A stretch of 64,000 nt of DNA from a candidate division WS6 bacterium OLB20 (GTDB lineage Bacteria > Patescibacteriota > Dojkabacteria > B142 > OLB20): positions 7,477 to 71,476 of the forward strand of contig JYNZ01000002.1 in NCBI GenBank assembly GCA_001567355.1, given 5' to 3'. The first letter of the stretch is position 1; the number at the start of each line of letters is the position of its first letter. The position numbers and the translations under genes were made by a program. The notes beneath the pieces were generated by a model. That model was not told where the DNA came from. It made no database searches and was given only the letters and a program-made list of their open reading frames with translations. This document shows positions 2,466 to 47,133 of this stretch, one piece after another.

Positions 2466-4495
2466 GCACGGCACTTGTTTACGGAAACGGCAGCATGCTT
2501 GTAAATGTAAATAACAGGCTCAACATCGCCGACCTTTACTGGCCGTATGTCGGTCAGGAGAATCACCTGAACGAGGTACCGAATCAGATGTTTCTGCGGA
2601 TTGATGGAACGCTGGATATGCTGACAGACTGGGAGATAAGCCCTGCATATACTGAGGACTCACTTGTCGGTAAAAGTTCGGCTCGCAGCGTTTTTCGCAA
2701 GCTCATGTTTAGTCTTCGCGAGGCAGTGCTTCCTGACAAGCAGGTGTTTCTCAGGGAGTATTCATTTACAAATTCGGCGGATTATACGCGTGAAGTGTAC
2801 CTCTATGTGAAGAATAACTTCCGTCTGATGGAAGGTGACATCGGAGACACCGCACTCTGGTATCCAAAGGCAGGCGCGCTTGTCCACTACAAAAAGAACA
2901 GGTATCTGGCAGTCGGTTCATCAGGTGTTCTGCATCAGTTTACCTGCGCATCGCCGCTTGATAACAGTGGCAGGGGAGCGTTTCCGGATACCGAGGGGCA
3001 GCTTGCTTATAATCCGGTGGCAACCGGAGAAGTCGAATCCTGCCTGTCAGTCAAACTGACGATCGCTCCCGGGGAAAGAGTAACTGCAGACTTTTTTCAT
3101 TGCAGCCGGTTATTGCTTTGACGATGTTGAGCAGGAGGCGGCGGAAGTAAGACATGAAGGTGTCAGCAGCCTTCTTGATTCGGCCGATCTTTACTGGCGC
3201 AACTGGGTACGCAGCAAAATCGGCAGCTATGCAGACAAGACACCACAGATATTTGATGATGATGAGCGCAATCAGAAGCTGTTCTCACTGTTCAAACGTT
3301 CTCTCCTTACAATCAGGACACAGTTTGACAATGATGGAGCAATCATCGCTGCGAACGACTCTTCGTTTGTTAAAGCGGGCGGCAAGGATTCATATTCATA
3401 TTTCTGGCCCCGTGACGGAGCACTTGTTGCCTCGGCACTGATAGATGCCGGCTATGGTGATCTGGTTAAAAAGTTTTTCAGATTCTGCAAGGGCATTATC
3501 AGTTCTGACGGGTATATCCTGCACAAGTATCATCCACGGTTTAAGGACGGACTGGCCTCAAGCTGGCACCCGTGGATAGACAAAGGGGGCAACCTGCAGC
3601 TCCCGATTCAAGAGGACGAGACCGCGCTTATTCTGTTTGCACTCTGGAAACACTACGAACGATTTGGTGATCAGGAGTTTCTGAACGAGCTGTACGATGC
3701 CTTTGTCCTCCCTGCCGCTGATTTTCTCTGCAGCTACCGCTATACGACAGAAGATTCACCGGCCTCAATACTGGAACATGTTGGCGGCTTTGCCAGAGCG
3801 GATCAGACCAATCCAATTGATAAAGACCTTAAGGGCACAGCATTGCCCCGGCCAGGTTTTGATATCTGGGAAGTCGAGCGTGGAGTGCATACCTATACTG
3901 TTGCTGCTGTGTATGCCGGGTTGCTTGCATCTGCCCATCTGGCCAAGCATCACGGGGATACGGATCACTCCAGACTGTACCGTCGCACTGCTCAGGATGT
4001 GGCTCAGGCTGCACGGGATCATCTGATCGATAAAAACACCGGACTTCTTATACGCAGTATCACCTGCGATCCGCTTGAAGAGAACTGCAGTATTGATCTC
4101 ACCATGGATGCCTCGCTTATGTATGTCTGGCGGCTGGGACTGCTGCCGGCAGACGATCCCGTGATGGAAGCTACTGTTAATACGATTGAGGAGCGACTCT
4201 GGATAGATAGCGCTGTCGGTGGAATTGCAAGGAAAGAAAATGACTGGTATCACAGGCTGATCATTCTCTACCAGGAAATCCATGGTTCATATCAACACTC
4301 TGGCTTGCACAATACTGGATCAGCCGCGGGGAGTCACAGAGAGCACAAAAGTACCTGGGCTGGGTACTTGATCATGCTGACGAAACGGGACTCATGGCTG
4401 AACAGGCGGACCCTCATCACGGCACAGCCTTATCGGTAAAGCCGCTGACATGGTCACACGCTGAGCTTGTTTCAACTGTTGCTATGCTTCTCTGA
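2462..4495 (+). CDS. GH15 glucoamylase (glucan 1,4-alpha-glucosidase); reading frame broken twice (frameshifted, so pseudogene or sequencing error)
   Basis: Three collinear frame segments together read as one GH15 protein. Frame 2 (2462-3121) is the N-terminal beta-sandwich domain (GNGSMLVNVNN...). Frame 3 (3084-~4270) gives FFIAAGY, SADLYWRNW, YSYFWPRDGA, FDIWEVERG and ENDWYHRL. Frame 2 (4244-4495) gives GNPWFISTLWLAQYW...PLTWSHAELV. Break 1 lies in a T6 run at 3092-3097; removing one T restores DFFIAAGY. Break 2 lies near 4262-4270. Confidence 0.75.
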
Positions 4496-4522
4496 GGATA
4501 GATGGTGATATAATCACTATCT

Positions 4523-5512
4523 ATGGAACGTCTCTTTACCTACGAATCCAATGTGAGGCTGCTCGGTTTTGCCGAGATGATGGCGCTGTTCCCGCAGGCT
4601 CTGGAAAAACGACCTGACCGGCAGCTTTACGATGGTCCTGCGCGGCCGTATTTCCCGGCAAACGAACCGGGACATGTGTATTCTCCCGATTACTCCGTAA
4701 AAACAAGGTTTAATCCCGAAACCGGTCAGTATCACTGTGTACGCCAGTTGCTTGGAGTGTTCAACGAATCTGTGCTTGCAGCAGACCGTTCAAAAATTGC
4801 TGCATTGTATGAGTCAAATCCATTCGGTCTCGACTCCCAGAAGCGGTTCGGTTTTGCATGGTCCAGGTATCTCTATGACGTGAGTGTTGATTTTGCTTTG
4901 CAGTATCCGCGGATGCTGCCGGGCTACTTTGAAGTAATGCGCCTGTCTGGTGCAAACGGGATGATGACACTTGCAGATGCCGGCTCAAGTTACTTCCGGG
5001 AGGAGTTGAAAGGAGAGGAAGACAGTGTCACAACAGAGTCGATGACCAGTGCAGTTGATGACTACCTGTCTTCATTTTTCCACCAGAGGCGTTACAGGGA
5101 TTTTATCAGGGATAAATCTGGTGTACGTAAATATGAGATCTACTGCCTGGGCAGGGGCACAGCAGCCGATGGTATGCGAATCTCAGGACAGAGTGCACTG
5201 GCAGCAGGTCCCGAAATTGCAGCTGATGCCTACGAAACTTTTAACGAATATTCCCAGATCCATATTGTCAGGGTGCTGGAGCTGCTTCTCGCAGCAGGAG
5301 TTGAATCCTCTGACAAATCAGATGAAACCCTTCTGGGAGTGTATACAGCAAAGCTCGCTTCTGAAGGGACAGCAGCTGCTTCAATACTGGCAGACAAACA
5401 TGCATTTGCAGATCACGTCGTTGCCCGGCGAAAAGACCCGAACTGGTCCGTTGCAGGTCAGCAAAATGCCGAGCTGGTCCATCTGTCCTCTCTGGCGAGG
5501 TATGGTGTCTAA
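4523..5512 (+). CDS. hypothetical protein (paralog of the truncated ORF at 1..540)
   Basis: 329-aa ORF with no recognisable domain. It shares N-terminal FPQALEKR and RFGFAWSRY blocks with ORF 1..540. A TATAAT box at 4509-4514 sits 8 nt upstream of the ATG. Confidence 0.5.
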   Translation: MERLFTYESNVRLLGFAEMMALFPQALEKRPDRQLYDGPARPYFPANEPGHVYSPDYSVKTRFNPETGQYHCVRQLLGVFNESVLAADRSKIAALYESNPFGLDSQKRFGFAWSRYLYDVSVDFALQYPRMLPGYFEVMRLSGANGMMTLADAGSSYFREELKGEEDSVTTESMTSAVDDYLSSFFHQRRYRDFIRDKSGVRKYEIYCLGRGTAADGMRISGQSALAAGPEIAADAYETFNEYSQIHIVRVLELLLAAGVESSDKSDETLLGVYTAKLASEGTAAASILADKHAFADHVVARRKDPNWSVAGQQNAELVHLSSLARYGV

Positions 5513-6953
5513 AGCTTGTGCAGATTTAGTACGGTAAGCTTTCCACGCGTCATCAGTTCCAGGGTCTCAATTGTACCCTGCATCAGCTGACCCGAGTCTT
5601 TGACTCCACCAAACGGAAAATTGTCAGGTCCCCGGTCCGGTCTGCCGTTGATCTGGACCGTCCCTACTTCAAGCTTATCAGCAATACGGAACGCCTCTTC
5701 TATATCCTGAGTGTAAATGCTTGCCTGCAGGCCATACGCAAGATTACTGTGATAGGCTAGCGCCATTTCCTCATCCTTGACGCGTGTTACCGGCAGAACC
5801 GGTCCGAACTGTTCCTCTGAGAAGATGCGCATTTCCGGGGTGACCCTGTCGAGGATATTGGCTGCAATATGGTTGCCATTGCGCTCACCTTTAACTATGT
5901 GTGATGCTCCTTTAGAATTTGCGTCATCCAGAAGCTCTGTGATGTAGTCTGCCGCTTTTGAGTCGATCATCGGATTGAGCTCCAGACCTGCGGCTTTTTC
6001 TTGCAGTTTTTCAACCAGCTGATCAGCGACGCTTTCGTATACAAGGACAAGTTTCTGAGCGGTGCAGCGCTGACCGCAGTACGAAAACCCTCCTGAGATG
6101 ATCTCGCTGGCTGCCATTTCAAGATCGGCATGGCTGGTAACAATGGCGGTATCCTTGCCGCCGAGCTCGAGCAGAAGCGGAATTCCCTGAGAAACTTCTG
6201 CAAGATGTCTGCCGACTGCTGTGCTACCGGTGAATGCGATCAGTTTTACACGCTGGTCACTGGTCATCGGGTCGCCAATCTCGCGAGAGCTGCCGGTAAC
6301 GATGTTAAACACTCCTGCCGGGAAACCTGCATTGGCAAAATGTCTGTAAAATGCTATCGCGCTTACAGAGCCCTGTGTTGCCGGTTTAAATACAACAGTA
6401 TTGCCTGCAAGCAGCGCAGGAGCAATCTTTGTAATCGACAGATTAAGCGGGTAATTAAACGAAGATATGGCAAGAACCACTCCCAGTGGTTCGCGTGAAT
6501 AATATCCGGTTTTCGCCCGCGCTCAAACTGACCGGTGACGTCCCCGGCATAAATGCTTCCTTTCATATGCCTGAGGGCCTCAATGGCAAGTTCCGCATAA
6601 CCGAGTGAACGTTCAAATTCTGACTCTGCTGCATCGTCATGTTTTCCGATCTCCCTGCCAAGCAGTGAAACAATCCTTGGCTTGTCAGCACGGATCAGAT
6701 CTATCGCCTTGCGCATCATCTCTACGCGACCCGCTACGGATGTCCTGCGCCAGGTGGTAAAGGCGTGGTCAGCAGCTTCAATCGCTGACAGCGCCTGTTC
6801 CTTTGTCGCGGCCTGTACTGTACCGCAGACAGTGTCATCCCACGGAGAGTAGATATCAATCGTTTCTCCCGATCCCGAATCGACCCATTCATTATTTATC
6901 AGCAGTCTGCTCTGATCCATAATTACTCTCCTAATATAGCTACATACTAACAA
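5509..6953 (-). CDS. gapN: NADP-dependent non-phosphorylating glyceraldehyde-3-phosphate dehydrogenase (GapN, ALDH superfamily); frameshifted near 6485-6500
   Basis: The two ORFs 6363..6953 and 5509..6480 are collinear halves of one protein. REPLGVVLAISSFNYPLNLSITKIAPALLAGN...ELGGKD closely matches GapN (FNYPVNLAGSKIAPALIAGN). The N-terminal frame ends in HANHWEWFLP while the shifted frame reads REPLGVV, indicating a 1-nt indel. Confidence 0.7.
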
Positions 6954-7032
6954 CTGGCCATGCGAGCAACAAGCAGCACTTATAATGTTGCAGTAATTTT
7001 GCTACAGTTTACCTGTAACAACTCACTGCCTG

Positions 7033-10000
7033 ATGAACACACAAAACGTATTTCATGCATACGACGTCAGAGGAATTGTTCCCGACGAACTGAATGCATC
7101 ACTGGTATACAAAATCGCACATGCGTACTTCTCACTTGTAGACGGGCAACGCTATATCATCGGATATGACATGCGTGAGACTTCTGCTGACCTGTTTACT
7201 GCATTTGTCAGAGCAGCGCATGATCTTGGTAAAGAGATTGAATCTGTCGGTATGGTGACGACAGACATGCTTTACTTTGCGCTTGGCAGATATGAGTACG
7301 ATGGCGGGATCATGATCACTGCTTCGCATAACCCCAAGATTTATAACGGTATTAAGATGATGGCCAGGGGAGTGGTGCCGGTATCGATGCAGGAACTGAA
7401 AGAACGATTTGATTCAGTAAGCGTCGAAGTCCCTCATGATCTGCTTGAGCGTAAGGCCGATATACCCGTAAAGCAAAGCAGCAGTGACTACGTCGATCAT
7501 GTACTTGGATGTGTGGATATCAATGCTATTCCTCCTCTTAAGGTCGTTGTCGACGCAGGCAACGGCATGGGCGGTCTCAATGCCAGAAAGGTGCTGGAAC
7601 GGCTTCCGTCGGTTGAGGTAATCGAAATGTACTTCGAACCGAATGCCAACTTCCCTCATCACGAGGCTAATCCCGTGATACGATCAAACACAAAAGAACT
7701 TGGTCAGATGGTTGTTGCAGAACGTGCTGATCTCGGTATCGCTTATGATGGCGATGGAGACCGCTGTCTGTTTGTTGATTCCAAGGGTGAGTATGTTCCG
7801 GGTCACCTGATGGTTGCTCTGTTTGCCCGCTACTATATGCAAAAGGAACAGGGTGCCAGGATAGCCTACGAGCACCGGAATGTCTATGCGATTCAACATG
7901 AAATCCGCGAAATGGGTGGAGAGGGAGTGCCTGTTCGCGCAGGACATTCGTTTTTCAAAGAGCGAATGCACAACGACGGGATAATCTTCGGCGGCGAGAG
8001 CAGCGCACATTATTATTTCCGGGATACCTATTTTGCAGATAACGGTGTGCTGCCGTTTCTGATTCTGTTTGAGATGCTTGGTAACTACCAGACAACATTG
8101 CGGGAACTATTGAGCTACTACCGCGAAAACTTTTTTGCGAGCGGGGAGCTTAACTTTATGCTCAATGAGGGCACAGACCCGGCTCATGTGAAAGATGCGT
8201 TTCATGCAGAGCTGCATCCGGTCCGCGATGAAGAACCGGACGGACTTGTGATGGAATTTGACAACTGGCGCTTTAATGCCCGCATGTCAAATACAGAGCC
8301 GGTTATGCGCATTAATATTGAGGCGCTTGCCTCTGACCAGCTTGATGAATCAATCCTCACGATCCACGAGATAATGAGTTCATTCGGAACATTTCTGGGT
8401 GATGGATCAGCCAGATCAGCAGATGAACTGAAAATTACAGCCAAGGACAGGTTTGAGATGCTGCTTGATAATCTCTGGTATACATGGAATCCGCATTACA
8501 TCCTGCCGATCGTGGATCTGTATGGTGACGGCTGGCGAAAAAATTCTCCGCCGGGCGAGTTCAGTTCACAGTACGGTATCAAAAAACTGTCACAGGTTCT
8601 TGATGACAAATCGTGGGAAATTGAGCAGAATGTCCGCCTGTTTGAAGCATATATGGATGAATCGCTGCCGACATGGTTCAGCAGATTTATCTCTGAGGAT
8701 CAAAACGGTGTATTTCGCATTCTGAAAGAAAAGCCTGTTGCCTACTTCAGTCTCGAGTACGGGCTTGTCGACTGGCTGCAGATCTATTCTGGCGGACTTG
8801 GGGTACTTGCCGGAGATTTCATCAAGGAGGCAAGTGACATGGGAATTCCGTTTGCCGCAGTAGGTATCTTTTATCACCAGGGCTACTTTCATCAGGATTT
8901 TGACGGGAACGGCCTTCAACAGGAGACGTACATCGAACAGCGACCAGAAGAGTATCCGCTTGAGCTTGTTACAGATGATGAAGGGAAGCCGCTGACCGGA
9001 GAGATTGAGATTATAGATCACCCTGTTTACTTCAGGGCCTGGAAGCTGCATGTCGGCAAAACACCTCTGTACCTTCTCGATACAAATTTTGAGAAAAACG
9101 AACGTCAGGAAGACCGCATGATTACTGCGCATCTCTATGGCGGTGATCAGGACACAAGGATCAGGCAGGAGATACTGCTTGGTATCGGTGGACCCCGTCT
9201 GCTTGAGCGACTTGGTATCAAGCCGGCTCTCTACCATATGAACGAAGGACACTCAGGTTTTCTGGTACTCGAGATTGCCCGCCAGTTCATCGAAGGCGAG
9301 GGCAAAAGTTTTGATGAGGCGATCGCCATGGTTGATGAACGTCTTGTCTTCACCAATCACACGTTAAAACAGGCGGGTAACGATATTTTCAGCTATGAAT
9401 TGATGGAGCGCTACTTCGGTACCTACCTTGATAACCTGCATACCGATATGGGCAGGGTGTTTGAGCTGGGTAAAGACGATCTCTATGCTCATGGCGACTT
9501 CTCAATGACAGTTCTTGGTTTGCGCAACGCTAAAATCTCAAATGCAGTAAGTCTTCTGCATGGTGAGGCGGCAAAACGTCTCTGGCCCGACTTCGGGCTT
9601 GTACCTGTTACAAATGGTGTACACATGCCCACCTGGGTTTCGCCCGAGATACATGCACTGCTGGACAAGTATGTCGGCGAGGACTGGCATTTTCCGGGTC
9701 GAACGGTGGATTATGAAAAAGTGCAGCAGATTCCTGACGACGAATTATGGGAGACGCATCTCGAACGCAAAAATAAACTGATTACCACACTGAATAACGA
9801 ACTTGCACTGGAGCTTGATCCGGAGGCGCTGACTATTGCATGGTCACGCAGGCTTACATCCTACAAACGGCCGGACATGATTGTCTCTGATCTGGAGCGT
9901 CTGAAGCAGCTGGTTCAGACTGCAGGTAAGCCGGTGCAGATCCTGATTGCCGGTAAAGCACATCCCCGTGACGGTATCGGTAAGGATCTGCTGCAGAAGA

Positions 10001-10449
10001 TGAACCAGAGTGTATCTCAGCCGGAGTTCCGCAACCGGGTCGTAGTTGTACCGGGATACAACTGGCAGCTTGCGCGCAGGATGGTCTCAGGAGCCGATGT
10101 CTGGCTTAACACTCCGTACCGCTTTGAAGAGGCATCAGGAACGAGTGGCATGAAAGCGGCAGCAAACGGTGTTCTACAGCTTACAACTAAAGATGGCTGG
10201 ACTGATGAGGTGGACTGGTTCCAGAAAGGCTGGCTGATTTCTGAAGAAAATCCTGTTGACTCGCTGCACGATACGCTGGAATATAAGATTATACCGCTTT
10301 ACTTTGACCATAACGGAAGCGGCTACAACGAAGACTGGCTGCAGATGATGAAAAATACAATGCAGACGGTTCTTGAGCATTACAGTACTGTACGCATGAT
10401 GAAGCAGTATCTGGATCTTATTTATAAACCGGTACTTGATGGACTCTAG
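7033..10449 (+). CDS. fusion protein: phosphoglucomutase/phosphomannomutase (N-terminal ~455 aa) joined to an alpha-glucan (glycogen/maltodextrin) phosphorylase with a DUF3417-type N-terminus (C-terminal ~680 aa)
   Basis: The N-terminal half carries the PGM/PMM active-site loop TASHNPKIYNGIKM and the C-terminal EIMSSFGTF. The C-terminal half carries LLDNLWYTWNP (the DUF3417 start), AYFSLEYGL...YSGGLGVLAGD, and the PLP-site motif EEASGTSGMKAAANG. A single uninterrupted frame of 1138 aa runs through both halves. Confidence 0.8.
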   Translation: MNTQNVFHAYDVRGIVPDELNASLVYKIAHAYFSLVDGQRYIIGYDMRETSADLFTAFVRAAHDLGKEIESVGMVTTDMLYFALGRYEYDGGIMITASHNPKIYNGIKMMARGVVPVSMQELKERFDSVSVEVPHDLLERKADIPVKQSSSDYVDHVLGCVDINAIPPLKVVVDAGNGMGGLNARKVLERLPSVEVIEMYFEPNANFPHHEANPVIRSNTKELGQMVVAERADLGIAYDGDGDRCLFVDSKGEYVPGHLMVALFARYYMQKEQGARIAYEHRNVYAIQHEIREMGGEGVPVRAGHSFFKERMHNDGIIFGGESSAHYYFRDTYFADNGVLPFLILFEMLGNYQTTLRELLSYYRENFFASGELNFMLNEGTDPAHVKDAFHAELHPVRDEEPDGLVMEFDNWRFNARMSNTEPVMRINIEALASDQLDESILTIHEIMSSFGTFLGDGSARSADELKITAKDRFEMLLDNLWYTWNPHYILPIVDLYGDGWRKNSPPGEFSSQYGIKKLSQVLDDKSWEIEQNVRLFEAYMDESLPTWFSRFISEDQNGVFRILKEKPVAYFSLEYGLVDWLQIYSGGLGVLAGDFIKEASDMGIPFAAVGIFYHQGYFHQDFDGNGLQQETYIEQRPEEYPLELVTDDEGKPLTGEIEIIDHPVYFRAWKLHVGKTPLYLLDTNFEKNERQEDRMITAHLYGGDQDTRIRQEILLGIGGPRLLERLGIKPALYHMNEGHSGFLVLEIARQFIEGEGKSFDEAIAMVDERLVFTNHTLKQAGNDIFSYELMERYFGTYLDNLHTDMGRVFELGKDDLYAHGDFSMTVLGLRNAKISNAVSLLHGEAAKRLWPDFGLVPVTNGVHMPTWVSPEIHALLDKYVGEDWHFPGRTVDYEKVQQIPDDELWETHLERKNKLITTLNNELALELDPEALTIAWSRRLTSYKRPDMIVSDLERLKQLVQTAGKPVQILIAGKAHPRDGIGKDLLQKMNQSVSQPEFRNRVVVVPGYNWQLARRMVSGADVWLNTPYRFEEASGTSGMKAAANGVLQLTTKDGWTDEVDWFQKGWLISEENPVDSLHDTLEYKIIPLYFDHNGSGYNEDWLQMMKNTMQTVLEHYSTVRMMKQYLDLIYKPVLDGL

Positions 10450-10777
10450 CATTGAGGACTTTGACCTGGAACCTGAAGTAAGCACACCCTGGAAGCGAGC
10501 GTTGTTTGAAGTCTCACTGGTTCTGGCAGTGGTTGTGCTCTTCGGTCTGATCGGTGTCTCCGCCTATCGCGCTGTTGAGGAGGAGCTGCAGTATCAGAAA
10601 CAGCTTGGTGGTGAGTTGCTTGTCACCTGCCAGAGACTCTACTGGGAAGAAGTCTACGACCCCGATCAGGTGGCAATAAACTCCGAGGCCCTCAATGTGT
10701 ATTACAGCAAACATACTGACTGTAAAATATTCAATGTGACCGAATTAGATCCTCTCTTCTTTGAGTCTGTCCGATAA
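10436..10777 (+). CDS. hypothetical small membrane-anchored protein
   Basis: 113-aa ORF overlapping the upstream stop by 14 nt. It has a single hydrophobic helix (LFEVSLVLAVVVLFGLIGV). Confidence 0.4.
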   Translation: MMDSSIEDFDLEPEVSTPWKRALFEVSLVLAVVVLFGLIGVSAYRAVEEELQYQKQLGGELLVTCQRLYWEEVYDPDQVAINSEALNVYYSKHTDCKIFNVTELDPLFFESVR

Positions 10778-10940
10778 CATCACTACGAGCGAGTAGGCAA
10801 TCGGAAATACGGACACGTCCGGAGATAAGTCCGGATTGTTGTATTATCCAAATGAAACTGCCTTGAAATTCTCAGGTCGAATCTGTTATACCTATTGTCT
10901 GATGGTTAATTTCGACGTCAGACCGAATTGTTTCAGCAAC

Positions 10941-10969
10941 TTGGTTGAATTCGGTCAGAATGATATAAT
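10941..10969 (+). promoter_or_regulatory. sigma70-like promoter (TTGGTT-17-TATAAT) ending 6 nt before the ATG at 10976; implies a leaderless transcript
   Basis: TTGGTT at 10941-46, a 17-nt spacer, TATAAT at 10964-69, and ATG at 10976. Confidence 0.35.
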
Positions 10970-10975
10970 GGGTAT

Positions 10976-12526
10976 ATGAGTAACTCCGGAGAACACATAC
11001 GTTACAGGCATGAATCGGTCAGACAGGAGGAATCCTCGGATACAGAAGGCCGGTTTACTGCAGTTGCAGAACAGCTGTTAGAACTTGAGCCAGCTGGTCA
11101 TCTGAAAACGCCAGATGTGATTAACCCTCCGTTCCGCAGACAAGCCTGGATCAAAGTCGATACCATGCCTCAAGCAGTGTTGTTTGCCGATACGCATCTG
11201 ATGCCTGCAATCAGCTCTCAGGATCCGCGTTCACGAATGTCTTCAACAAAGCGTTATGCGTTCAACTTCTCCGCTGTGCCGGGTGTCGCCTCACTGACGC
11301 GCTGGAATGACCTTGCAACAAGGGTCGGTCTGCATCTCGCACGCAAACAGATGGAGGAGGCTCTGACGACTGCTGACATCATGGGGTCGCTCGGTGATAA
11401 CTTTGACGCCTACGGGGTTGAGGGTTTTCTTGAAACAATGGCTTATACAGAGGACTATGTAACACGCCGTTTTGCCAATGCCGACCGCGATGACCGCCCC
11501 GGATACTTCAGTATTGTGGCAGGCAATCATGATATGGCGACTCGCGTGAATTGTCCGGAGGCTGTTGCTGGCTATATGGGGCTGCGCAAACAGCAGCTTG
11601 CAAAAACTACGTTTGATGCCATGGTTGCACTCGCTGAAAAAGGATACAGCATGCATACGTTACATACTATGTGGAAGGAAGCTGCCGAAGGGGACAGAAC
11701 CGAACCATACAAGCTGCTGCCGGCCGAACGCTGGTTTCTGCAGCGGTTGTATACAGGACCTGAGATCGGGGCCTTTGAAAAAAGAAACAATGATGGTTCT
11801 GCAACTGTAGTTGCTTTTCTTAACTCAGAGTTCGGGCGCGAAGGCTGCACACTGCAGGATCTTTGCGAAACCGTTGAGATGGATCTTGGCAGAGAGGCAG
11901 ACGATGAAACAGGCCGCAAGATGATCGAAACATATGCATCTGACATCGGACGCCAGCGCGCAGTCATTGACGGACTTATGGAGACACTTGTCAGTCATGC
12001 AGATTCACGGGCTGTCGTCTACACACACAATCCAGTCATGATGCAGCAGGAGCTGATCCGTGAATTGATTGCTCACGACGGGGAACGATTTGCGACCTTT
12101 GAGGAGGCAAGAGAATTTGTTACTAAAAGGATTCTGACAATAGGTGGACACTACCATCTTAAAGAGCATCTTCCGTCAGATGCAGAAGGAATATACATGG
12201 TAAACGGATTTTCAAGACAGGTTGTTTCGATGATTGCAGAGGGACCCCGGAGGAGCTGGTATGGCACCAGGTTCAGACTGCGAGCATACTCAGACCCGGA
12301 TGATTATGCCGAGTTCCTCTTTGGAGCGCTTGATGACCCTCAAACCGCCAGGATAACAGGTGCTGAGATTACAGGAAAACTTGATGCTGTGAGGCGTGAT
12401 CTTAAGTCCAGGCTCCTAGGCAAAGCTGCCCGTGCAGTTGCCCGGATGTGGCAGGCTGCCGATTATCAGCAGAGAGAGGGACAATCAGAGCTTGAACTCG
12501 ACCCGCAAAGCTCCGGTCTTGATTAG
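10976..12526 (+). CDS. calcineurin-like metallophosphoesterase domain protein with a long C-terminal extension
   Basis: Metallophosphoesterase motifs occur in order: D-x-H (VLFADTHL), GD-x-x-D (LGDNFDAYG), GNHD (IVAGNHDM). Confidence 0.6.
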   Translation: MSNSGEHIRYRHESVRQEESSDTEGRFTAVAEQLLELEPAGHLKTPDVINPPFRRQAWIKVDTMPQAVLFADTHLMPAISSQDPRSRMSSTKRYAFNFSAVPGVASLTRWNDLATRVGLHLARKQMEEALTTADIMGSLGDNFDAYGVEGFLETMAYTEDYVTRRFANADRDDRPGYFSIVAGNHDMATRVNCPEAVAGYMGLRKQQLAKTTFDAMVALAEKGYSMHTLHTMWKEAAEGDRTEPYKLLPAERWFLQRLYTGPEIGAFEKRNNDGSATVVAFLNSEFGREGCTLQDLCETVEMDLGREADDETGRKMIETYASDIGRQRAVIDGLMETLVSHADSRAVVYTHNPVMMQQELIRELIAHDGERFATFEEAREFVTKRILTIGGHYHLKEHLPSDAEGIYMVNGFSRQVVSMIAEGPRRSWYGTRFRLRAYSDPDDYAEFLFGALDDPQTARITGAEITGKLDAVRRDLKSRLLGKAARAVARMWQAADYQQREGQSELELDPQSSGLD

Positions 12527-12569
12527 GATATGTCATTACAGTGTGATGGAATTATGTCCCTGCTGGAAA

Positions 12570-12656
12570 TGGTGTCGGAGGAGGGACTCGAACCCTCACG
12601 ACTGTTAAGGTCAAAGGATTTTAAGTCCTTCGTGTCTACCATTCCACCACTCCGAC
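12570..12656 (-). tRNA. tRNA-Leu (anticodon TAA), long variable arm, CCA encoded
   Basis: The reverse complement folds as GTCGGAG/CTCCGAC acceptor, D-arm, anticodon loop CTTAAAA, long extra arm, T-arm GGTTCGAGTCC, discriminator A, CCA. Confidence 0.85.
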
Positions 12657-12694
12657 CCTACGGATGTCATAAAGCTGAGTCAGCAGCTATAGTA

Positions 12695-12768
12695 AGGTGA
12701 CGGCGGGATTCGAACCCGCGCGTAAGGGTTTTGCAGACCCTCGCCTTAACCAGCTTGGCTACGTCACC
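12695..12768 (-). tRNA. tRNA-Cys (anticodon GCA), CCA not encoded
   Basis: The reverse complement folds with acceptor GGTGACG/CGTCACC, anticodon loop CTGCAAA, T-arm GCGGGTTCGAATCCCGC, and discriminator U. Confidence 0.85.
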
Positions 12769-13059
12769 GTACGTAGGGCAATTGTATCAGAAATAAAACC
12801 TCTGTCACCACTGTATGTCGGAATGCGGCCGATTTAGGGTAGAATGTTGCATAATTATCGTCAACTGTATGTGTCTTTTCTGCGGAGCCCCTGGTGGTCA
12901 CAATCTGGCGCAGTTAATCCCTTATATCGCAGTAACTGCACCTTTGCTTGTTATGCGTTTGAAGGTCGCACGCAGATCAAAAAAACATTCGAATGGAGAT
13001 CTGATGACGAAGAGCTTAAAGCGCACACCGAGGTAATATACATCTGTTGATGCTCTGTG

Positions 13060-13134
13060 TCGGGGTGACAAGACTCGAACTTGCGACCTCGCGCACCCGA
13101 AGCGCGCGCTCTAAGCCAACTGAGCTACACCCCG
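13060..13134 (-). tRNA. tRNA-Pro (anticodon CGG)
   Basis: The reverse complement folds with acceptor CGGGGTG/CACCCCG, D-arm GCTCAGTTGGCTTAGAGC, anticodon loop TTCGGGT, T-loop TTCGAGT, and discriminator A. Confidence 0.85.
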
Positions 13135-13219
13135 ATACAGCACATCAGTAGTCACATCCCGCTCTTAAGAACCCGTTGTCAATTCTGAAGTATGCAGGTC
13201 TCACAAAGGAATAATAGTC

Positions 13220-13307
13220 TGGTGCCGGAGACAGGACTCGAACCTGCACAGCTGTTAAGGCCACATGCACCTGAAGCATGCGTGTCTACCAATTTCACCA
13301 CTCCGGC
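13220..13307 (-). tRNA. tRNA-Leu (anticodon CAG), long variable arm, CCA encoded
   Basis: The reverse complement folds with acceptor GCCGGAG/CTCCGGC, anticodon loop TTCAGGT, long extra arm, T-loop TTCGAGT, and ACCA. Confidence 0.85.
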
Positions 13308-13431
13308 ATACTGTCAAATAAGGCGTTACTGAACGCTGGAGCTTATTATATACCCTGACGGGCATTTTTTGTACTCCCTGACGCTACTGCTGCTGAACGG
13401 TCATCCTTTTTTTGGACTGTGTCGGGGTGAC

Positions 13432-13506
13432 AAGACTCGAACTTGCGACCTCACGCACCCCATGCGTGCGCTCTAAGCCAACTGAGCTACACCCCGTCAC
13501 AGCACA
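13432..13506 (-). tRNA. tRNA-Pro (anticodon GGG)
   Basis: Near-duplicate of the 13060..13134 tRNA, with the anticodon stem-loop CACGC-ATGGGGT-GCGTG. Confidence 0.85.
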
Positions 13507-29113: not shown

Positions 29114-29131
29114 GAATGCAGGTGAGGCCTG

Positions 29132-30094: not shown

Positions 30095-30098
30095 CAAA

Positions 30099-30320: not shown

Positions 30321-30415
30321 AATCTGTAACAGGAGTTGACGTATTTACAACCTCGCAGGAGGTTGTTTTTATGCCTGTTGTTGTGATATATAATAAGTCT
30401 ATATGATAACTGATC

Positions 30416-31303: not shown

Positions 31304-31488
31304 ACGAAACATTAGGATTTACAGGACAGATGATGACAGAACCGCTCCCGCAGGAACTGTTCCCCTTGTTTGCGACCGAGAATCGTCCTGATTACGATTA
31401 TGTCTGGAACCGGATTGCAGGCGAGCCAAAGCCAGACGCGCAAACCGAGACTCCCCCGTCCACAGAGAAATCTTCCCGCGAACCCTGA
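31300..31488 (+). CDS. hypothetical small protein (ATGA-coupled)
   Basis: 62-aa ORF overlapping the upstream stop. Confidence 0.3.
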   Translation: MNETLGFTGQMMTEPLPQELFPLFATENRPDYDYVWNRIAGEPKPDAQTETPPSTEKSSREP

Positions 31489-31568
31489 ACGCTGTTACAA
31501 ATATTACTCCGCTGCGTAATACCTGCTGTATGACTTCGGTGTGATTTTCTGTTTATTACACTGCCATT

Positions 31569-32420: not shown

Positions 32421-32529
32421 GAACGCTTTCAGATTTTTATGCAAAAGTTGATACAAACAATGGCACAGATTCGTAGAACTAAATACTGAACTTCGCTGTT
32501 GTATTTCATTTCTTAATACACCTGTTTTC

Positions 32530-33441
32530 ATGGTAACTGCCACGGTAACACCGCACGTCGATCACGATACAAGCCCGTTTACTGAGATAGTCTGTCGCAC
32601 TAAAGGTGTCGACAGTCCGCACTTTATCCTCCCACGGTCAGAATTTTTGAGCAGAACTGTACACAAGTATGAAGGCGTAGCAGGGCGGCACAGCAGGCAG
32701 GCTGCAGAATCCCTATATGCTGCACACCACAGTCCTCTTGACGGTGAGCCGGTTGTACCTGACGAGCATACTGTCGCCGCGCTGGCTTACTGGGAGAGCT
32801 GGCTGCTTGGAGGAACTCCGGTTCAGGGTGAGCTAAGCAGTATACTACCTGACAGGTATGCCGAGTACATTACAAAAATGGCTGCTCGAGATATGTTTGC
32901 TCAGCAGTCTGTTCGGCTGCAACAGCTTTTTTCGGCACTCGAGATGGGTAATGATATGCCCGAAATGGCACAGGATGCAATCGCGACGCTCAAACAGGAT
33001 TATGACGCATACGGGTTTGACAGTTTTAAGGACGCAATAGCTTTTGCGCGCCAGATGCGCTCTCTCAGAAACGCACCTGACTATGTCAATATTGTACGTC
33101 CTGCAGCAAAAAAGCAGATGCTTGCTGCTTATGACCCTGCGATTGTAGAACGTTATGGCCTGTCGGTATCCGATTCCGAAGTGGATGCCGGTTTCTTTGA
33201 CTTCTTTTATCTCAATGAGCTGTTCAAGCCGTATGCATTAAATGAGGATGGCGAGTTCGGCTGGGACGTTGCCATGCACAGACTTGGCATCCCGGTTGGT
33301 GCATCCAGACAGCTTCGGGCACAGGATGGTCAGATCCCCGATGTCTCACTTATCACCAGATATTTCACCGGCTGGAATAAGTCATTTATTCGCAATGAGC
33401 GCCAGTCGCAAGCGTTTCTGCGGCAGCAGGCCGTTGCCTGA
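32530..33441 (+). CDS. hypothetical protein, paralog array member B
   Basis: VPDEHTVAALAYWESWLL, YAEYITKMAARD, and the C-terminal LGIPVG...TRYFTGWNKSFIRN. Confidence 0.5.
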   Translation: MVTATVTPHVDHDTSPFTEIVCRTKGVDSPHFILPRSEFLSRTVHKYEGVAGRHSRQAAESLYAAHHSPLDGEPVVPDEHTVAALAYWESWLLGGTPVQGELSSILPDRYAEYITKMAARDMFAQQSVRLQQLFSALEMGNDMPEMAQDAIATLKQDYDAYGFDSFKDAIAFARQMRSLRNAPDYVNIVRPAAKKQMLAAYDPAIVERYGLSVSDSEVDAGFFDFFYLNELFKPYALNEDGEFGWDVAMHRLGIPVGASRQLRAQDGQIPDVSLITRYFTGWNKSFIRNERQSQAFLRQQAVA

Positions 33442-33477
33442 TTGTAACAATATGCCCCGGGATGAGTATTACTAACA

Positions 33478-34734
33478 ATGACAGAGGCGCTTGAGTTTAA
33501 CAATCTGCCTGAGGTTGTGATTCATCCTGACAGCATTTACGGGTGTTCATCACTCGATTTTTATAACAGGGTGGCGCTTGAGCGGGCTTCGCGGACTACG
33601 GTATGTACCGACGTTCAGCTGCAGGAGGCGCAACGGATGTATCTGATCGCCGATGACAGCACACTTCATCAGGGTGCCGGTGTTCCTGAAGACTACCACA
33701 AAGCACCTGCTGCTGATGATACAGGGGTTTATATGCAGCACCGGGGAACGTACGCAGGCATAGCACTGCTCAAAGACTGGTGGGCACGTGCGCCTGAGGA
33801 TGCAGAGCGTTTCAGTCGCGTCAGACCAGAGTTTCAGTTGAGCTATCTTGAGACGATGGCACGGCGTGACAAGCACATTCAGAATGTGACCATGGTATAT
33901 GCATACGGTGACATGCTGCGGATGGATAGTGCAGGAAGGGATCTGCAGGATGTGATCGATGAGGCCGATGCACTGAAACAAGAGTATCCTGCAGCTGCAT
34001 GGGTGCAGTCAAAGTATGCAGGACTTGGATTTACCGACGCTCTAACTGCAGGCAGGCTGTTTTCCGAATACAACGGAGTATATGGTCAGGATGCTCAGGT
34101 TCAGGCGGGTCTTGTTGTCCGGGATCTTCTTGGCCGCGGTGTCCTGGACAGCAATGATCATGATTTTATTGTCTCTGTCATGAACGGCTATACCGAGGAG
34201 CAACTTGCAGATCATGTTGATGCCATGAACGCCAGAAGCATGAGTGCAGTGACACTGCTGGCAATTGAGTCCGGTCTTCACGAGTGGGGGTTTGATTCTG
34301 TGTACGACTTCGCCGAGTTTACCGATGGAGCGTTCAGGCTGGAGCAGGATTCCTCCGCTGCGGCCAGGGGACAGATAGAACACTGGATGGCAGCATTTTC
34401 AGATACTCAGAGCGAAGATCCGCTGACATCGTTTCGCACCTATCAGTACCTGGCTTTTCTCGCTTCTAAACAGCCTGCACCGGATAATGCATGGGCTGAG
34501 ATGCTCAGGCGTCTGGGGATACCTACAGATACTCCCCGTGAACGGCCGCTTTCGATGTCCGGACGTATAACACAAAGAAGAATCGGAATGTTCTTTTCTC
34601 ATATGAACGAGACCTATTCACGTTTCGGCTACAAACGCAGTCATATGGAGCTGTTTTCAGAGATGCCACGGCTGTTCACGCGCAGAGGTCTGAAAAACGT
34701 TCTTACTGTACTCGCTGACAAGGCAATAGCCTAG
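33478..34734 (+). CDS. hypothetical protein, paralog array member C
   Basis: VPEDYHKA, QLSYLETMARRD, and the C-terminal RRLGIPTD block. Confidence 0.5.
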   Translation: MTEALEFNNLPEVVIHPDSIYGCSSLDFYNRVALERASRTTVCTDVQLQEAQRMYLIADDSTLHQGAGVPEDYHKAPAADDTGVYMQHRGTYAGIALLKDWWARAPEDAERFSRVRPEFQLSYLETMARRDKHIQNVTMVYAYGDMLRMDSAGRDLQDVIDEADALKQEYPAAAWVQSKYAGLGFTDALTAGRLFSEYNGVYGQDAQVQAGLVVRDLLGRGVLDSNDHDFIVSVMNGYTEEQLADHVDAMNARSMSAVTLLAIESGLHEWGFDSVYDFAEFTDGAFRLEQDSSAAARGQIEHWMAAFSDTQSEDPLTSFRTYQYLAFLASKQPAPDNAWAEMLRRLGIPTDTPRERPLSMSGRITQRRIGMFFSHMNETYSRFGYKRSHMELFSEMPRLFTRRGLKNVLTVLADKAIA

Positions 34735-34792
34735 TCTTGTATTTAATCCGTTGCCTGCTATAATTACCTACGCCGGACCTCGTCCGGATCAT

Positions 34793-34866
34793 TGCCGGGT
34801 CGTCTAAAGGTAGGACATTGGTTTCTGGCACCAAGAATCGGGGTTCGAATCCCTGCCCGGCAACCA
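34793..34866 (+). tRNA. tRNA-Gln (anticodon CTG), CCA encoded
   Basis: Acceptor TGCCGGG/CCCGGCA with the U1-A72 pair typical of tRNA-Gln, anticodon loop TTCTGGC, T-arm CGGGGTTCGAATCCCTG, discriminator A, CCA. A TATAAT box at 34759-64 and a short hairpin at 34773-87 lie upstream. Confidence 0.85.
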
Positions 34867-34942
34867 GACTGAAGCCACAGGCTCTGTTTTCCCTCCGTGT
34901 CTGAGATCGCGCTGCTAACGGGGATGGATTGATTCCAGGATG

Positions 34943-35926
34943 CTACCGTTGTTTGCGAAATGCATGCTCAAGGTAACCCGACAGCACCCGTTTATACGCT
35001 GCAGCCTGAGAAGCATCGCCTTCGGGACTTTCTGATACCCAGCGTCCGTATCCTGACAGGATGGATTTCGTTAATTGTGCCGCAGGACAGTGTCGTTCCA
35101 TCTTGCCACGGGTGACACTGAAACCTGATCTGTAAGTTACTTCGGTTACATCGCCGTCACCAAGCATGATTGATATTGCTCTGAGCAGAGGCTGCCTTGA
35201 GTGTGTACTATGTCTCAGTGACAGAATTGCATGGTACAGACTTGATTCACTGCTTCTGTCGGGAGCAGGAAATACCATCCGTAAGCGTGACATAAGATCA
35301 TCGAATGACTGTACAGGCCCGGAAAAACTCTTCGCAACCGACCTTCCAAGTTCAACAGGCATTGCCAGACCTGTTTCCAGGGGCAGTACAGGATTATCAT
35401 CTTCTTCAAAGAGCTCTTCATATCGTGGTCCGAGTGCTATGGCATAGCCGGTAAAATGCATTACTGCAGAGAAGAACCCATCATTCGCCCGTTCCAGATG
35501 CTCTGCAAACACATGTGTGGGATTCTCAGTCTGATAGCCATGCAATTGCGGTTTCAGCGTCTCGGCCAGTTTTACAGCCTCTTCGCGCTCCGGTTCATAT
35601 AACTCTAAATTGAGATGAAAGAATATGCTCTCCAGCAGGGAGGCATCTCCAAGCAGCTTGAGTTCCTGCGGCAGGAGATGAACAACCTGACCAACTTCAT
35701 TTGCAAGTGTATTCAGTCGTCTTGTGTTGACGTACGAGCAGTATGGATTATTGATGCTCTGATATCGGTCCGTATCCAGAAGTGCAGAAACGAGTCCGAT
35801 ATCGGTTACCTCAGGATCGGATTCTAATCCCGCACGTTTAAGATATTCAGCACGGGCCTCCCGATAACTCTGGGCTAATTTTCTCCCCGAAATGATTTTA
35901 TGAATCAGATACTCAAATGTATGCAT
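34943..35926 (-). CDS. hypothetical protein
   Basis: 327-aa ORF with no recognisable domain. Confidence 0.45.
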   Translation of the reverse strand: MHTFEYLIHKIISGRKLAQSYREARAEYLKRAGLESDPEVTDIGLVSALLDTDRYQSINNPYCSYVNTRRLNTLANEVGQVVHLLPQELKLLGDASLLESIFFHLNLELYEPEREEAVKLAETLKPQLHGYQTENPTHVFAEHLERANDGFFSAVMHFTGYAIALGPRYEELFEEDDNPVLPLETGLAMPVELGRSVAKSFSGPVQSFDDLMSRLRMVFPAPDRSSESSLYHAILSLRHSTHSRQPLLRAISIMLGDGDVTEVTYRSGFSVTRGKMERHCPAAQLTKSILSGYGRWVSESPEGDASQAAAYKRVLSGYLEHAFRKQR

Positions 35927-43068: not shown

Positions 43069-44631
43069 ATGAGTCCCGAGCATCTATCACAATTTCCTGA
43101 GCGATTAATGCTTGCTGATGCTGATCTTGATATTCTTGCAGCAGAACGTGCGCGTGAAATCTATCGTGCGTCAGCAGATCATGTAACCCACCGTGTGATG
43201 GAGAATTTTCAGCATGACTTCAGAACTCCACTTACCATTGTGAACTCTTCTGCGTATCTGCTTTCCAGAAGCATTCAGATGGCGGAGAGAGATAACGGTC
43301 TTGTCATCAACCCCGAGCAGATGGTTGCTAATACAGAAGCAGCGGAAAGAATAGAGGCTGGAGTCTCGAGACTTAACAGCTTCTCTTTGCTGTATACAGA
43401 GACACATCCCCTGTTCAATGTCGACGCAGAAAACGAAGTAATCACACGAGCCATGAATGATCCGCAGACGCGTTCAATACTGGTCTCCGAAGTGTTTTCT
43501 GATCTGCAGCGGGGATTTGCAGTTATTGACACTGATGGCGGACTTGCAGCAGACAGAACATTTATGACTTTAGCTGGTAAGTCGGACGTGCAGACAGCAT
43601 ATGAACAGGCGGTAGGTGACTTTCAGCATACTGCACTTGACCGCCAGCGTATGGTTCTGCGTTCGGAAAACGGTGAGTCGACCGGTTATCTGCTCACTCT
43701 GACCAAAACAGAGGACGGTAAGATGATTGCAATGCTTCTTCCTGAGTCTGCTGAACGTGCAGGTGAGGGCGGACCTGTTCAAAACCACATGTCTGAGTAT
43801 GTCGCTGCTTCAATAGCAACTGCGGTCTTTACCGAAGATTTATATACTTTTCAGTTTGAACTGTCTGTAAATGACACAGCGGCGATGAGGACGCAGAGAT
43901 CAGGAATTCTGCCAGCTGACAGCAATTACCCTGAAGCCGTTGCAGCAGAGAAACAACGGCTCGTGAAGCTGTTTAATGACGAAAAAGCAGACAGATTGCA
44001 CAGTCTTCGCGAGGTCGCACAGCTTATTAGCGCTATGGAAAAAGATTTTTTCGGTATGGCGACATACGATGTTCAAAGAGCAAAAGAAAAAGTACAGACA
44101 GCAACGATGAAACTTGGTGTGCTGAGAAATACAATTAACAAGTACCTGCGGTTTGCGGATGCATACTGGAACAGGACTGCTGAAGCAGGATCAGTTGCGC
44201 TGCGCGATCTGGTCGAGGAGATGTCTGCTGGATGCACAGGTGTCAGTGATGAATTTAAGGTGCATGCATCAGCAGATGAAGGTGTTGAGATCAGTGCTTC
44301 GAAGGATGATATCGTGGCGATGGTGACAGAGCTGGCAGAAAATGCTCAGCAGGTCCTTGACGGTGCTGCACCAAATCATGAACTTGCATTAACAGTAGAT
44401 CATGATGAGGAATACGTGTACATTACGGTATCTGACAACGGGATGTCGCTCAGCACGGATCAGCTATCACACATTCTGTTTGCAACGTATGATGTCGATC
44501 AGGCTGGAGGATCTCTGCGCCCGGGTCTTGGACTGAATATCGTTCGCGCACTTGCCAGGCGGAACGGTATCAGACTGGATGTCTCAGCAGATGAGTCATA
44601 CAAGTACTTCACACTGATACTTGCCCGCTAG
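43069..44631 (+). CDS. atypical soluble histidine kinase-like protein (N-terminal HisKA H-box, ~330-aa insert, C-terminal HATPase_c)
   Basis: H-box FQHDFRTPLTIVNSSAYLL at residues ~47-65, and a C-terminal GHKL region (ITVSDNGMSLS...GLGLNIVRALARRNG). No TM segments. Confidence 0.55.
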   Translation: MSPEHLSQFPERLMLADADLDILAAERAREIYRASADHVTHRVMENFQHDFRTPLTIVNSSAYLLSRSIQMAERDNGLVINPEQMVANTEAAERIEAGVSRLNSFSLLYTETHPLFNVDAENEVITRAMNDPQTRSILVSEVFSDLQRGFAVIDTDGGLAADRTFMTLAGKSDVQTAYEQAVGDFQHTALDRQRMVLRSENGESTGYLLTLTKTEDGKMIAMLLPESAERAGEGGPVQNHMSEYVAASIATAVFTEDLYTFQFELSVNDTAAMRTQRSGILPADSNYPEAVAAEKQRLVKLFNDEKADRLHSLREVAQLISAMEKDFFGMATYDVQRAKEKVQTATMKLGVLRNTINKYLRFADAYWNRTAEAGSVALRDLVEEMSAGCTGVSDEFKVHASADEGVEISASKDDIVAMVTELAENAQQVLDGAAPNHELALTVDHDEEYVYITVSDNGMSLSTDQLSHILFATYDVDQAGGSLRPGLGLNIVRALARRNGIRLDVSADESYKYFTLILAR

Positions 44632-44664
44632 TACTTGCTTTGACTGCTTCATCTGACGTAAGCT

Positions 44665-45240
44665 GTGAGTATGAAGCAGCTCACGTCGTTTTTCAACTAC
44701 TCCACGGATATGGTTCTGGCTACCTTTCTGCTGCTTCTGATTATGTTCTCTTTTATTGTTGTGGCTTCTCTGACACCGATTACGTACCCTGAGACCGTCT
44801 CTGATCTGAGTGTTCTTGGCGCAGCCACAGATTCGCAGGTCCGCTATACCGGAACAGATGACAGCAGCTATGAGCTGCAGGAGATACGCCAGTCTGACAG
44901 CACTACATCCGTTCAGTTTACACTTACACCTGCATCGGAGACGTATGTTCAGGAGCTGTTTGTTCTTGAGGCACCGCAGGACGGAACAGGATTGTTCAGA
45001 GTCGAGATTGAGCTACCGGATCAGGCCAGGTATGGTGCCCGTTATGCGATCAGAGTTGCAGGGCAGGAGTATGAACTATACAACGACACAGGTGATGCAC
45101 TGCAGAGAGACTATGAGCTGAATGTCGCTGCGGGTGAAACAGTTCCCGTCAGCTTTATGTTCTCATCTGAAGAATTAATAAACTATCCGCTTGATCTGCT
45201 GCTTTCGGTTGAGTTCACAGGACTCAGTACGCTTCCCTAA
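44665..45240 (+). CDS. hypothetical membrane-anchored exported protein
   Basis: The N-terminal helix LATFLLLLIMFSFIVVASL is the only feature. Confidence 0.4.
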   Translation: MSMKQLTSFFNYSTDMVLATFLLLLIMFSFIVVASLTPITYPETVSDLSVLGAATDSQVRYTGTDDSSYELQEIRQSDSTTSVQFTLTPASETYVQELFVLEAPQDGTGLFRVEIELPDQARYGARYAIRVAGQEYELYNDTGDALQRDYELNVAAGETVPVSFMFSSEELINYPLDLLLSVEFTGLSTLP

Positions 45241-47133
45241 TCGTTTTTCAGTGCCTTGATAAACACATCTTTCGGAAGCTCCACACGCCCGAACATCTTC
45301 ATCCGCTTTTTACCTTTCTTCTGTTTGTTGAGCAGCTTCATTTTTCGCGTGATATCTCCGCCGTAGAGTTTGGCAGTGACATCCTTGCGATAGGCAGGTA
45401 TTGTCTCGCGAGCGATGACTCTTGACCCGATGCTTGCCTGGATGGGGATCTTAAACTGCTGTCTCGGTATGAGTTCCTTCAGTTTGGATACGGTGTCGCG
45501 GGCGCGAAACTCGGCCTTGTCCCGGTGAGCAAGAAACGAAAGTGCCTCAACCGGTTCGTAGTTGACCAGAATGGAAACCTTTTCGATCTTTGAAACCCGG
45601 TACTCAAGGAATGTATAGTCCATTGAGGCATAACCCTGGGACAGCGATTTAAGCTTGTCAAAGAAGTCGATGATGATTTCTGCTGTCGGGAGTTCGTATT
45701 TGAGCATTACATGTTTTTGGCCGGCGATATGCTGGCTGCCGAGATAGTTCATGGTTTTGTAGATCCCGCGGCGCTCCTGTGTAAGGTCCATAATGCTGCC
45801 GATATACTGTTCGGGAGAGAGAATCTCCAGTTCAACCCACGGTTCTTCAATTTCATCAATCAGTGTCGGATCGGGAAACTCGGCCGCGTTTTTTTATATG
45901 CAGCTTTTTTTCCGAGTCGATATTGGCGATATTTATTGTTTCAAACTTGCTGTAATCATGTGTGGCAAGTTTCAGTTTGTATTCAACACTCGGGGAGGTT
46001 GTTATCAGGTCTATATCAAACTCACGCTCCAGCCGTTCCTGTGTAATCTCCATGTGCAGCAGCCCGAGGAATCCGCAGTTAAAACCTGATCCCAGAGCCT
46101 GGGAGTTTTCCTTCTGAAAGGTGATTGCAGGGTCATTCAGCGCAAGTTTCTCGAGTGCTTCCTGAAACTGTGGAAAATCATCGGCATCAATCGGATAAAG
46201 TGAGGCATACACCATCGGTTTAGGCGGCATATATCCCGGGAGTGGCTCGGTTTTTTGTGCCATGCCTGCCAGAGCTACAGTGTCTCCAGCATGTACATTG
46301 CGAATATCTTTGAGTCCTGTAGCGATATATCCGATAGCACCGGTCAGCAGCTCATTCTGCGGGACAAGATGTGGCAATACAAAACCGATCTCCACCGGTT
46401 CTATCTCTGTATCGGTTCCAAGCATGACGATGGTATCCTTCTGGCTGAAACTGCCGTCAACAACTTTGACAAGCGCCACAACTCCTTTATGCTCGTGGTA
46501 AAACGAGTCGTAGACAAGCGCTCTGGGTACTTCGTTGTTGCCGGTTTTAGGAGCCGGTACACGTTCGATAATGGCATTGAGAAGATCAGTAACACCTGCA
46601 CCGGTTTTGCCGGATGTCAGAACGATCTCATCCTCATCAAAGCCGAATGTCTCACTGAGGCTCCTGATGACCATGGGCACATTGGCACTGGGCAGGTCAA
46701 TTTTGTTGATTACCGGGATGATGTCCAGGTTGTACTCAAATGCCTTATAGACCGTGGTAAGTGTCTGCGCTTGAATACCTTGTGTTGCATCTACAAGCAG
46801 GACAGCTCCTTCAGCTGCTGCCAGTGAACGCGATACCTCATACGAAAAATCGACATGGCCGGGTGTGTCAACAAGATTGATAATGTACGGATCATCTGAT
46901 ACAAACCGCTCATCGCTGCCGCTGTAGGTAAACTGCATCCGCGCAGTCTGCATTTTGATTGTAATGCCGCGTTCCTGCTCCAACTCAAGCGTATCAAGCA
47001 TTCTGTCTTTTGACTCGCGTTCTGTGACATTGCCGGTGATCTCCATCATGCGGTCAGCAAGTGTTGACTTGCCGTGGTCAATATGGGCTATGATCGCGAA
47101 GTTTCTGATTTTCTGTATTCGTTCGGACTGCAT
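45237..47133 (-). CDS. lepA: elongation factor 4 (LepA); frameshifted at a T7/A7 run (45889-45895)
   Basis: ORF 45856..47133 covers the GTPase through domain IV (AHIDHGKST, DTPGH, NKID). ORF 45237..45791 is the LepA C-terminal domain. The connecting segment (FPDPTLIDEIEEPWVELEILSPEQYIGSIMDLTQERRG) reads in a third frame. Deleting one A from the A7 run joins the frames. Confidence 0.8.

Follow-up and report, generated by a model that had tools for sequence, protein, structure and literature searches.

Results

Six frame breaks interrupt five genes of the OLB20 genome

We analyzed a 64,000-nucleotide (nt) stretch of DNA, hereafter called the window, that belongs to the metagenome-assembled genome (MAG) of WS6 bacterium OLB20 from the Olburgen partial-nitritation/anammox reactor (Speth et al. 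2016, PMC4821891). An exact-sequence look-up locates it on a 267,420-bp contig, where its gene fragments are deposited as KXK27226-KXK27270. Three-frame translations and Pfam scans reveal that 5 of the approximately 58 genes in the window are interrupted by a total of six breaks in reading frame. The affected genes encode a glycoside hydrolase family 15 (GH15) glucoamylase-like protein, which carries two breaks, an aldehyde dehydrogenase, the tRNA methyltransferase TrmB, a protein of the ORFan type, and the elongation factor LepA. The indels (insertions or deletions) were placed by using the syntenic loci of other Dojkabacteria (designated L004, L005, L006 and L009) along with close LepA homologs, and a seven-state codon-usage Viterbi path, trained on 23 confident genes, was run over the whole window. 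The genes and their breaks are as follows.

2462-4495, plus strand: GH15-family glucoamylase-like gene in three frame segments (2462-3097, 3098-4256 and 4257-4495), from translations, Pfam and relatives
3092-3097, plus strand: break 1, a T6 run with one T too many (+1), from homologs and the Viterbi switch at 3097/3098
4254-4257, plus strand: break 2, one nt missing between AG and GC, from homolog comparison
5509-6920, minus strand: aldehyde dehydrogenase ('gapN'-like) gene, split in two, with Pfam Aldedh positions 1-114 and 118-459 on separate fragments
6510-6513, minus strand: break 3, a coding-strand A4 run (plus-strand T4) short of one A (-1), with the Viterbi switch at 6516/6517
17734-18383, plus strand: trmB, tRNA (guanine46-N7)-methyltransferase gene, split in two, with Pfam Methyltransf_4 on the second fragment
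17887-17894, plus strand: break 4, one nt missing inside ACCATGCT, from comparison with the TrmB of L004
29133-30094, plus strand: ORFan gene with one frame switch, from its codon-usage profile and the Viterbi path
29567-29620, plus strand: break 5, a frame switch needing +1 nt, near 29593/29594, from coding statistics and overlapping open frames only
45237-47133, minus strand: lepA (elongation factor 4) gene, as a 425-amino-acid (aa) N-terminal part and a 218-aa open C-terminal frame
45889-45895, minus strand: break 6, a coding-strand A7 run (plus-strand T7) with one A too many (+1)

An earlier examination of the letters of the window (the sequence-only reading) had proposed six frame breaks, and all six are present. 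Each is compatible with a 1-nt indel, where homology backs five of the six and codon statistics alone the remaining one. The Pfam profile coordinates adjoin across the gene fragments, as with the two Aldedh matches, which indicates that these are split genes and not chance juxtapositions. Internal stops were not seen in the displaced frames, and the Viterbi scan of the whole window yields no same-strand frame switches besides these and the ordinary start and stop boundaries of genes. No other decay is visible, as had been proposed. The genes for the housekeeping proteins L28, pyruvate kinase, iPGM and peptide deformylase are each present as one intact called gene.

The breaks occur at T6, T7, T4 and GG sequences, plus two sites that lack a run. 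Three of the six fall in mononucleotide runs of at least 4 nt (T6, T4 and T7), and so the earlier statement that half lie in homopolymer runs holds as a count, but the sites are not those originally listed. Only two are in runs of at least 6 nt, four lie outside runs of at least 5 nt, and 43 other runs of at least 6 nt in the window have no frame break. The longest mononucleotide run in the 64 kb is 7 nt; this length occurs eleven times and 6-nt runs occur thirty-four times, nearly all of them made up of A or T.

The glucoamylase-like and aldehyde dehydrogenase genes

The frame order of the GH15 gene is a, then b, then a, and Pfam Glyco_hydro_15 matches the middle and last fragments. When both breaks are repaired, the gene encodes a full-length protein of 677 aa that scores 294 bits with TIGR01577, far under the cutoff of 820.7, and so the assignment holds at the family level only. 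In relatives L004, L005 and L009 the gene is a single open reading frame (ORF). The T6 run of break 1 lies directly between a GAC (D) codon in one frame and an ATT (I) codon in the next frame, and homologs read D-[YF]-F-I across it, in agreement with the earlier proposal that one T at 3092-3097 is extra. At break 2, where homologs carry DWYLRVDNELPGNPW, the window encodes DWYHR followed by ADHSLPGNPW. This lesion is probably a GGG that is read as GG. A second break in this gene had been predicted at 4262-4270; it exists, but lies 6-8 nt away at 4254-4257.

Frame changes also appear in the GH15 gene of L006, and we considered whether these represent independent decay. This was ruled out: a 10-N scaffold gap (L006:5838-5847) within the gene of this related MAG causes them, mimicking frame changes in the tblastn output.

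The aldehyde dehydrogenase gene is in a single frame in L004, L005, L006 and L009, with a C-terminal part that is 63-72% identical in the first three of these. Homologs read RKTGLY[ST]R.PLGV across break 3, whereas the window encodes ERGRK in frame a and then TGYYSREPLGV in frame b. This places the lesion in the T4 run at 6510-6513 and not at 6485-6500, where the break, itself real, had been positioned. The repaired protein is full length (470 aa) and falls under every NCBIfam equivalog cutoff, with its best equivalog matches being lactaldehyde dehydrogenase (335 bits, cutoff 650) and archaeal G3PDH (302 bits, cutoff 780). The name gapN used in the sequence-only reading is not borne out by these scores, all of which are far below cutoff. 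As judged by profile matching, membership in the Aldedh family is all that is established, and no score qualifies the protein as GapN (non-phosphorylating GAPDH).

The trmB and ORFan genes

Repaired TrmB is 216 aa long and matches NF001080 with 155 bits (cutoff 132) over profile positions 2-222 of 224. The trmB gene of relative L004 reads straight across the position of the break. Its product, the nearest homolog, carries GKGAYTIALAEK at this point, where in the window GKGAYTM and ALAEKYPQ are encoded in different frames. The trmB break had been attributed to an A5 run at 17896-17900. The break is real, but its site is ACCATGCT at 17887-17894, and the A5 run is actually located at 17902-17906.

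The ORFan gene begins with an ATG at 29133 that is preceded by the Shine-Dalgarno (SD)-like sequence AGGTGAGG. The Viterbi switch at 29593/29594 falls inside 29567-29750, where both frames are open, and the neighborhood of the break has no run longer than 3 nt. A break had previously been placed at 29598-29603; codon statistics uphold the frame switch. The repaired 28703-30094 sequence has no homologs among 5.8 billion proteins, nor does it match its own deposited fragments, and no useful similarity was found to the neighboring tandem hypothetical genes. A candidate seventh break at 29102/29103 was discounted because an ordinary gene boundary lies there, where a stop codon precedes an SD sequence and ATG.

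The region from 28703 to 35926 is a run of hypothetical genes that have no Pfam matches, several of which encode similar ends (e.g., YFTGWNKSFIRNE / YFTDWDRSFLRD). This sequence resemblance suggests that these genes may constitute a tandem paralog family.

The lepA gene

The GTP_EFTU, D2 and EFG_III domains of LepA are encoded by one fragment, and EFG_C and LepA_C by the other. Removal of one base from the T7 run at 45889-45895, as had been proposed, yields a 631-aa protein that is the same length as an 86%-identical homolog and matches TIGR01393 with 825 bits (cutoff 533.9) over profile positions 2-595 of 595. This repair joins two frames, not three as originally stated. At break 6 the 86%-identical homolog reads LLHIKNAAEFPDP, exactly like the repaired gene. 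Among the best 120 matches there are 119 full-length LepA homologs, all of 606-652 aa, and lepA is in one frame in the additional loci L058, L059 and L060. A Joint Genome Institute (JGI) metagenome scan gave no matches to the site with either A6 or A7.

Translation of the gene as it stands would leave the N-terminal fragment without domain V and the C-terminal domain. A start at the sole called restart, M35 of the C-terminal frame, would remove part of domain V.

The window also encodes a 507-aa HATPase_c protein (43108-44631) whose counterpart in L060 (12542-14059, minus strand), a relative from ERR15087790, is interrupted by an in-frame stop (...KEALA*LMENAW...) and appears in the gene calls as two proteins of 385 and 119 aa. 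In this related Dojkabacteria, the gene could be a pseudogene by nonsense mutation, or the stop could be recoded.

The broken sequence recurs in separate assemblies

The sequence-only reading favored systematic homopolymer errors from long-read or pyrosequencing-type data over six independent pseudogenes. Its guess of flow-type data was correct: the MAG was built from Ion Torrent Personal Genome Machine (PGM) reads only, with approximately 18x coverage. Evidence bearing on the errors themselves comes from Logan assemblies, which are reference-free, of the Sequence Read Archive runs SRR29904083, SRR29904084 and SRR29904086. A 63,297-bp contig from SRR29904084 and contigs of 32,653 and 19,945 bp from SRR29904086 encode proteins of the window, among them the LepA fragment with its frameshift, and these proteins are also present on a 2,253-bp contig from SRR29904083. 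Over approximately 61 kb of contig sequence, the SRR29904084 and SRR29904086 contigs are 100.000% identical to the window and have no gaps. The matched stretches (976-12641, 17669-38346 and 35856-57133) together span all six breaks. Recurrence in independent assemblies was the check proposed in the sequence-only reading, and the conclusion that the breaks are errors fails it. This makes the artefact explanation less probable, to a degree that depends on the platform of the runs.

We considered whether these runs could be the original libraries of Speth et al., either singly or pooled. The entire WS6-1 bin comprises 85,159 reads, or approximately 18x overall and 0.5-5.5x per library. By our own estimate, PGM reads at 5.5x or less could not give contigs of 32-63 kb from a k=31 graph in which every k-mer must be seen twice. 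This possibility was therefore rejected, and the lengths of the contigs indicate that the runs are a different, deeper data set. Dependence of the runs on the MAG, for example as simulated reads, is also unlikely: the contig indices run past 260,000, the file of one sample is very large, and the runs differ in abundance. We found no literature naming SRR29904083-86 that identified the runs. We infer that the reads behind the Logan assemblies are accurate and independent of the MAG.

At 12570-13496 (minus strand) the window carries five tRNA genes (Leu-TAA, Cys, Pro-CGG, Leu-CAG and Pro-GGG). The SRR29904086 Logan contigs end inside the first and last genes of this cluster, at 12641 and 13423.

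Other features of the window

A gene at 7033-10449 (plus strand) encodes an 1138-aa fusion of PGM_PMM_I-III phosphoglucomutase/phosphomannomutase domains with an alpha-glucan phosphorylase domain. The fusion is kept whole in Dojkabacteria (L004, 65% identity over residues 6-1135). Loci from Dormibacterota match the phosphorylase half only, and those from Gammaproteobacteria match the phosphoglucomutase half only. At 24990-26170 (plus strand) there is a BlaI/BlaR-like pair, consisting of a Penicillinase_R repressor and a Peptidase_M56/M48 sensor, in this candidate phyla radiation (CPR) genome.

A giant ORF of 2496 aa at 53607-61097 (plus strand) has no Pfam match. The same is true of a 417-aa ORF at 52263-53516 (plus strand), which is located 90 nt upstream in the same frame. 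Together (52263-61097) these could be one gene with an in-frame stop.

Discussion

The analysis shows that the frame breaks exist, that relatives carry intact genes, and that reference-free assemblies made separately contain the identical sequence. We consider the probable explanation to be that the breaks are real, fixed 1-nt indels, such that the affected genes are young pseudogenes or, at best, give truncated products. The insertions would have converted T5 to T6 and A6 to A7, and the deletions would have occurred in an A5 run, in GGG, and in two non-repetitive contexts. Such changes could originate by replication slippage or misincorporation and might then have been fixed by drift in a clonal population of WS6/Dojkabacteria OLB20. 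Each break would truncate a gene that relatives keep intact, with further decay yet to accumulate.

As expected for frameshift pseudogenes, the parts of each protein lie in different frames that a 1-nt repair restores, and the orthologs of four of the genes are uninterrupted. The four broken genes of known function are dispensable in model bacteria. Frameshift pseudogenes are found in recently bottlenecked or host-restricted bacteria such as Salmonella Typhi, Shigella and Mycobacterium leprae. The resemblance to these includes single-base indels, often in short mononucleotide runs, intact orthologs in relatives, and little decay of young lesions. Unlike those organisms, OLB20 is a free-standing CPR metagenome bin whose lesions are all indels, with no nonsense mutations or insertion sequence (IS) insertions seen, and its load of 5 in approximately 58 genes is derived from a single 64-kb window.

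Several observations weigh against this interpretation, many of which favor residual PGM consensus indels, either homopolymer miscalls or high-frequency indels, that survived correction while the real genes remain intact. The reads were exclusively 400-bp PGM reads, assembled with the CLC assembler, and the authors corrected "persistent frameshifts, common in IonTorrent data" (PMC4821891). Coverage was low, as noted above. High-frequency indels in PGM data, which cause frameshifts in assemblies, occur once per 1-2 kb per run, with only 29% in homopolymers, and favor A/T insertions and C/G deletions (Bragg et al. 2013, PMC3623719). The indels observed here are of matching types, namely A or T insertions and the loss of G from a 2-3-mer. 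Every one of the six lesions is a 1-nt indel that leaves the downstream frame open. Nonsense mutations, larger deletions and internal stops are absent, and LepA and TrmB match end to end once a single base is repaired. At approximately 9 breaks per 100 kb, the window comes near the rate of consensus indels reported for PGM assemblies. Five broken genes among approximately 58 is an unusually high pseudogene load. Lineage-specific changes in LepA (17 versus 19 in the N-terminal part and 9 versus 3 in the C-terminal part) show no clear excess. Moreover, no other strain or sample of the species was found in a collection of 15 billion proteins, and confirmation comes from a single run series with an identical clone, such that no truly unrelated population confirms the breaks. 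If SRR29904083/84/86 were in some way generated from the MAG, for instance as simulated reads, their agreement with the window would count for nothing.

What nonetheless makes an artefact rather unlikely, while leaving it a serious contender, is that two other runs, which cannot be the original low-coverage libraries, give identical sequence at all six sites through reference-free assembly, with zero differences over approximately 61 kb. Between 82 and 87% of PGM high-frequency indels are unique to a run (PMC3623719), and so a second PGM data set would be expected to differ at many positions and not to agree at exactly these six. In addition, long runs are normally undercalled by PGM (PMC3623719), whereas both of the long-run breaks in the window would have to be overcalls. 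The MAG's authors had already corrected frameshifts by script and by hand, and the remaining breaks may be what their reads supported. Another possibility is a mixed population, in which intact alleles exist beside the broken ones but are left out by assemblers that follow the majority path. Minor alleles are hidden in metagenome consensus sequences, and polymorphisms are most commonly indels in runs. We consider a mixed population very unlikely, as the two runs yield the same path and no intact allele is assembled in any sample. Furthermore, the seven protein clusters that were looked up, including those of the LepA, GH15 and dehydrogenase fragments, are all singletons, and among the best 120 LepA matches none that is full length lies between 86 and 100% identity.

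Real breaks could instead be bypassed by ribosomal frameshifting or transcriptional slippage to produce full-length proteins. Like the programmed +1/-1 frameshifts of prfB and dnaX and the poly(A) slippage of endosymbionts, the frame changes occur inside conserved genes whose downstream frames are fully open and conserved, and two are at A/T runs of 6-7 nt where slippage is possible. Unlike in those systems, no break is shared by any relative (the best 120 LepA matches and L058-L060; L004, L005 and L009 for the GH15 and dehydrogenase genes), and this lineage specificity argues against conserved programmed frameshifting. The six sites also lack a common motif, require shifts in both directions, and in four cases have no slippery run. 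Described cases of rescue by transcriptional slippage involve A/T tracts of approximately 9 nt or more, and runs in the window reach 7 nt at most. We therefore regard programmed recoding as exceedingly improbable.

Returning to young pseudogenes, we also considered whether the window is typical of the whole 1.4-Mb genome, with approximately 1 gene in 10 broken by a burst of single-base-indel inactivation that includes lepA and trmB. Weak mismatch repair and a small population size could be drivers of such a burst, and some products might persist through low-level slippage at A/T runs. This extension is doubtful, and we offer it only tentatively.

The feature is ordinary in kind, and its interest rests mainly on the involvement of lepA and trmB and on the caution it provides for Ion Torrent MAGs. 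If the breaks are artefacts, then gene counts, metabolic reconstruction and protein databases are distorted by the split genes in the OLB20 GenBank annotation, the fragments having already entered UniRef. If they are real, single-base indels would have cost a CPR bacterium of widely used anammox seed sludge its lepA and trmB genes along with part of a glycogen/glucan gene cluster. This would provide a snapshot of ongoing genome reduction, and would caution against the automatic "repair" of frameshifts in MAGs of this type.

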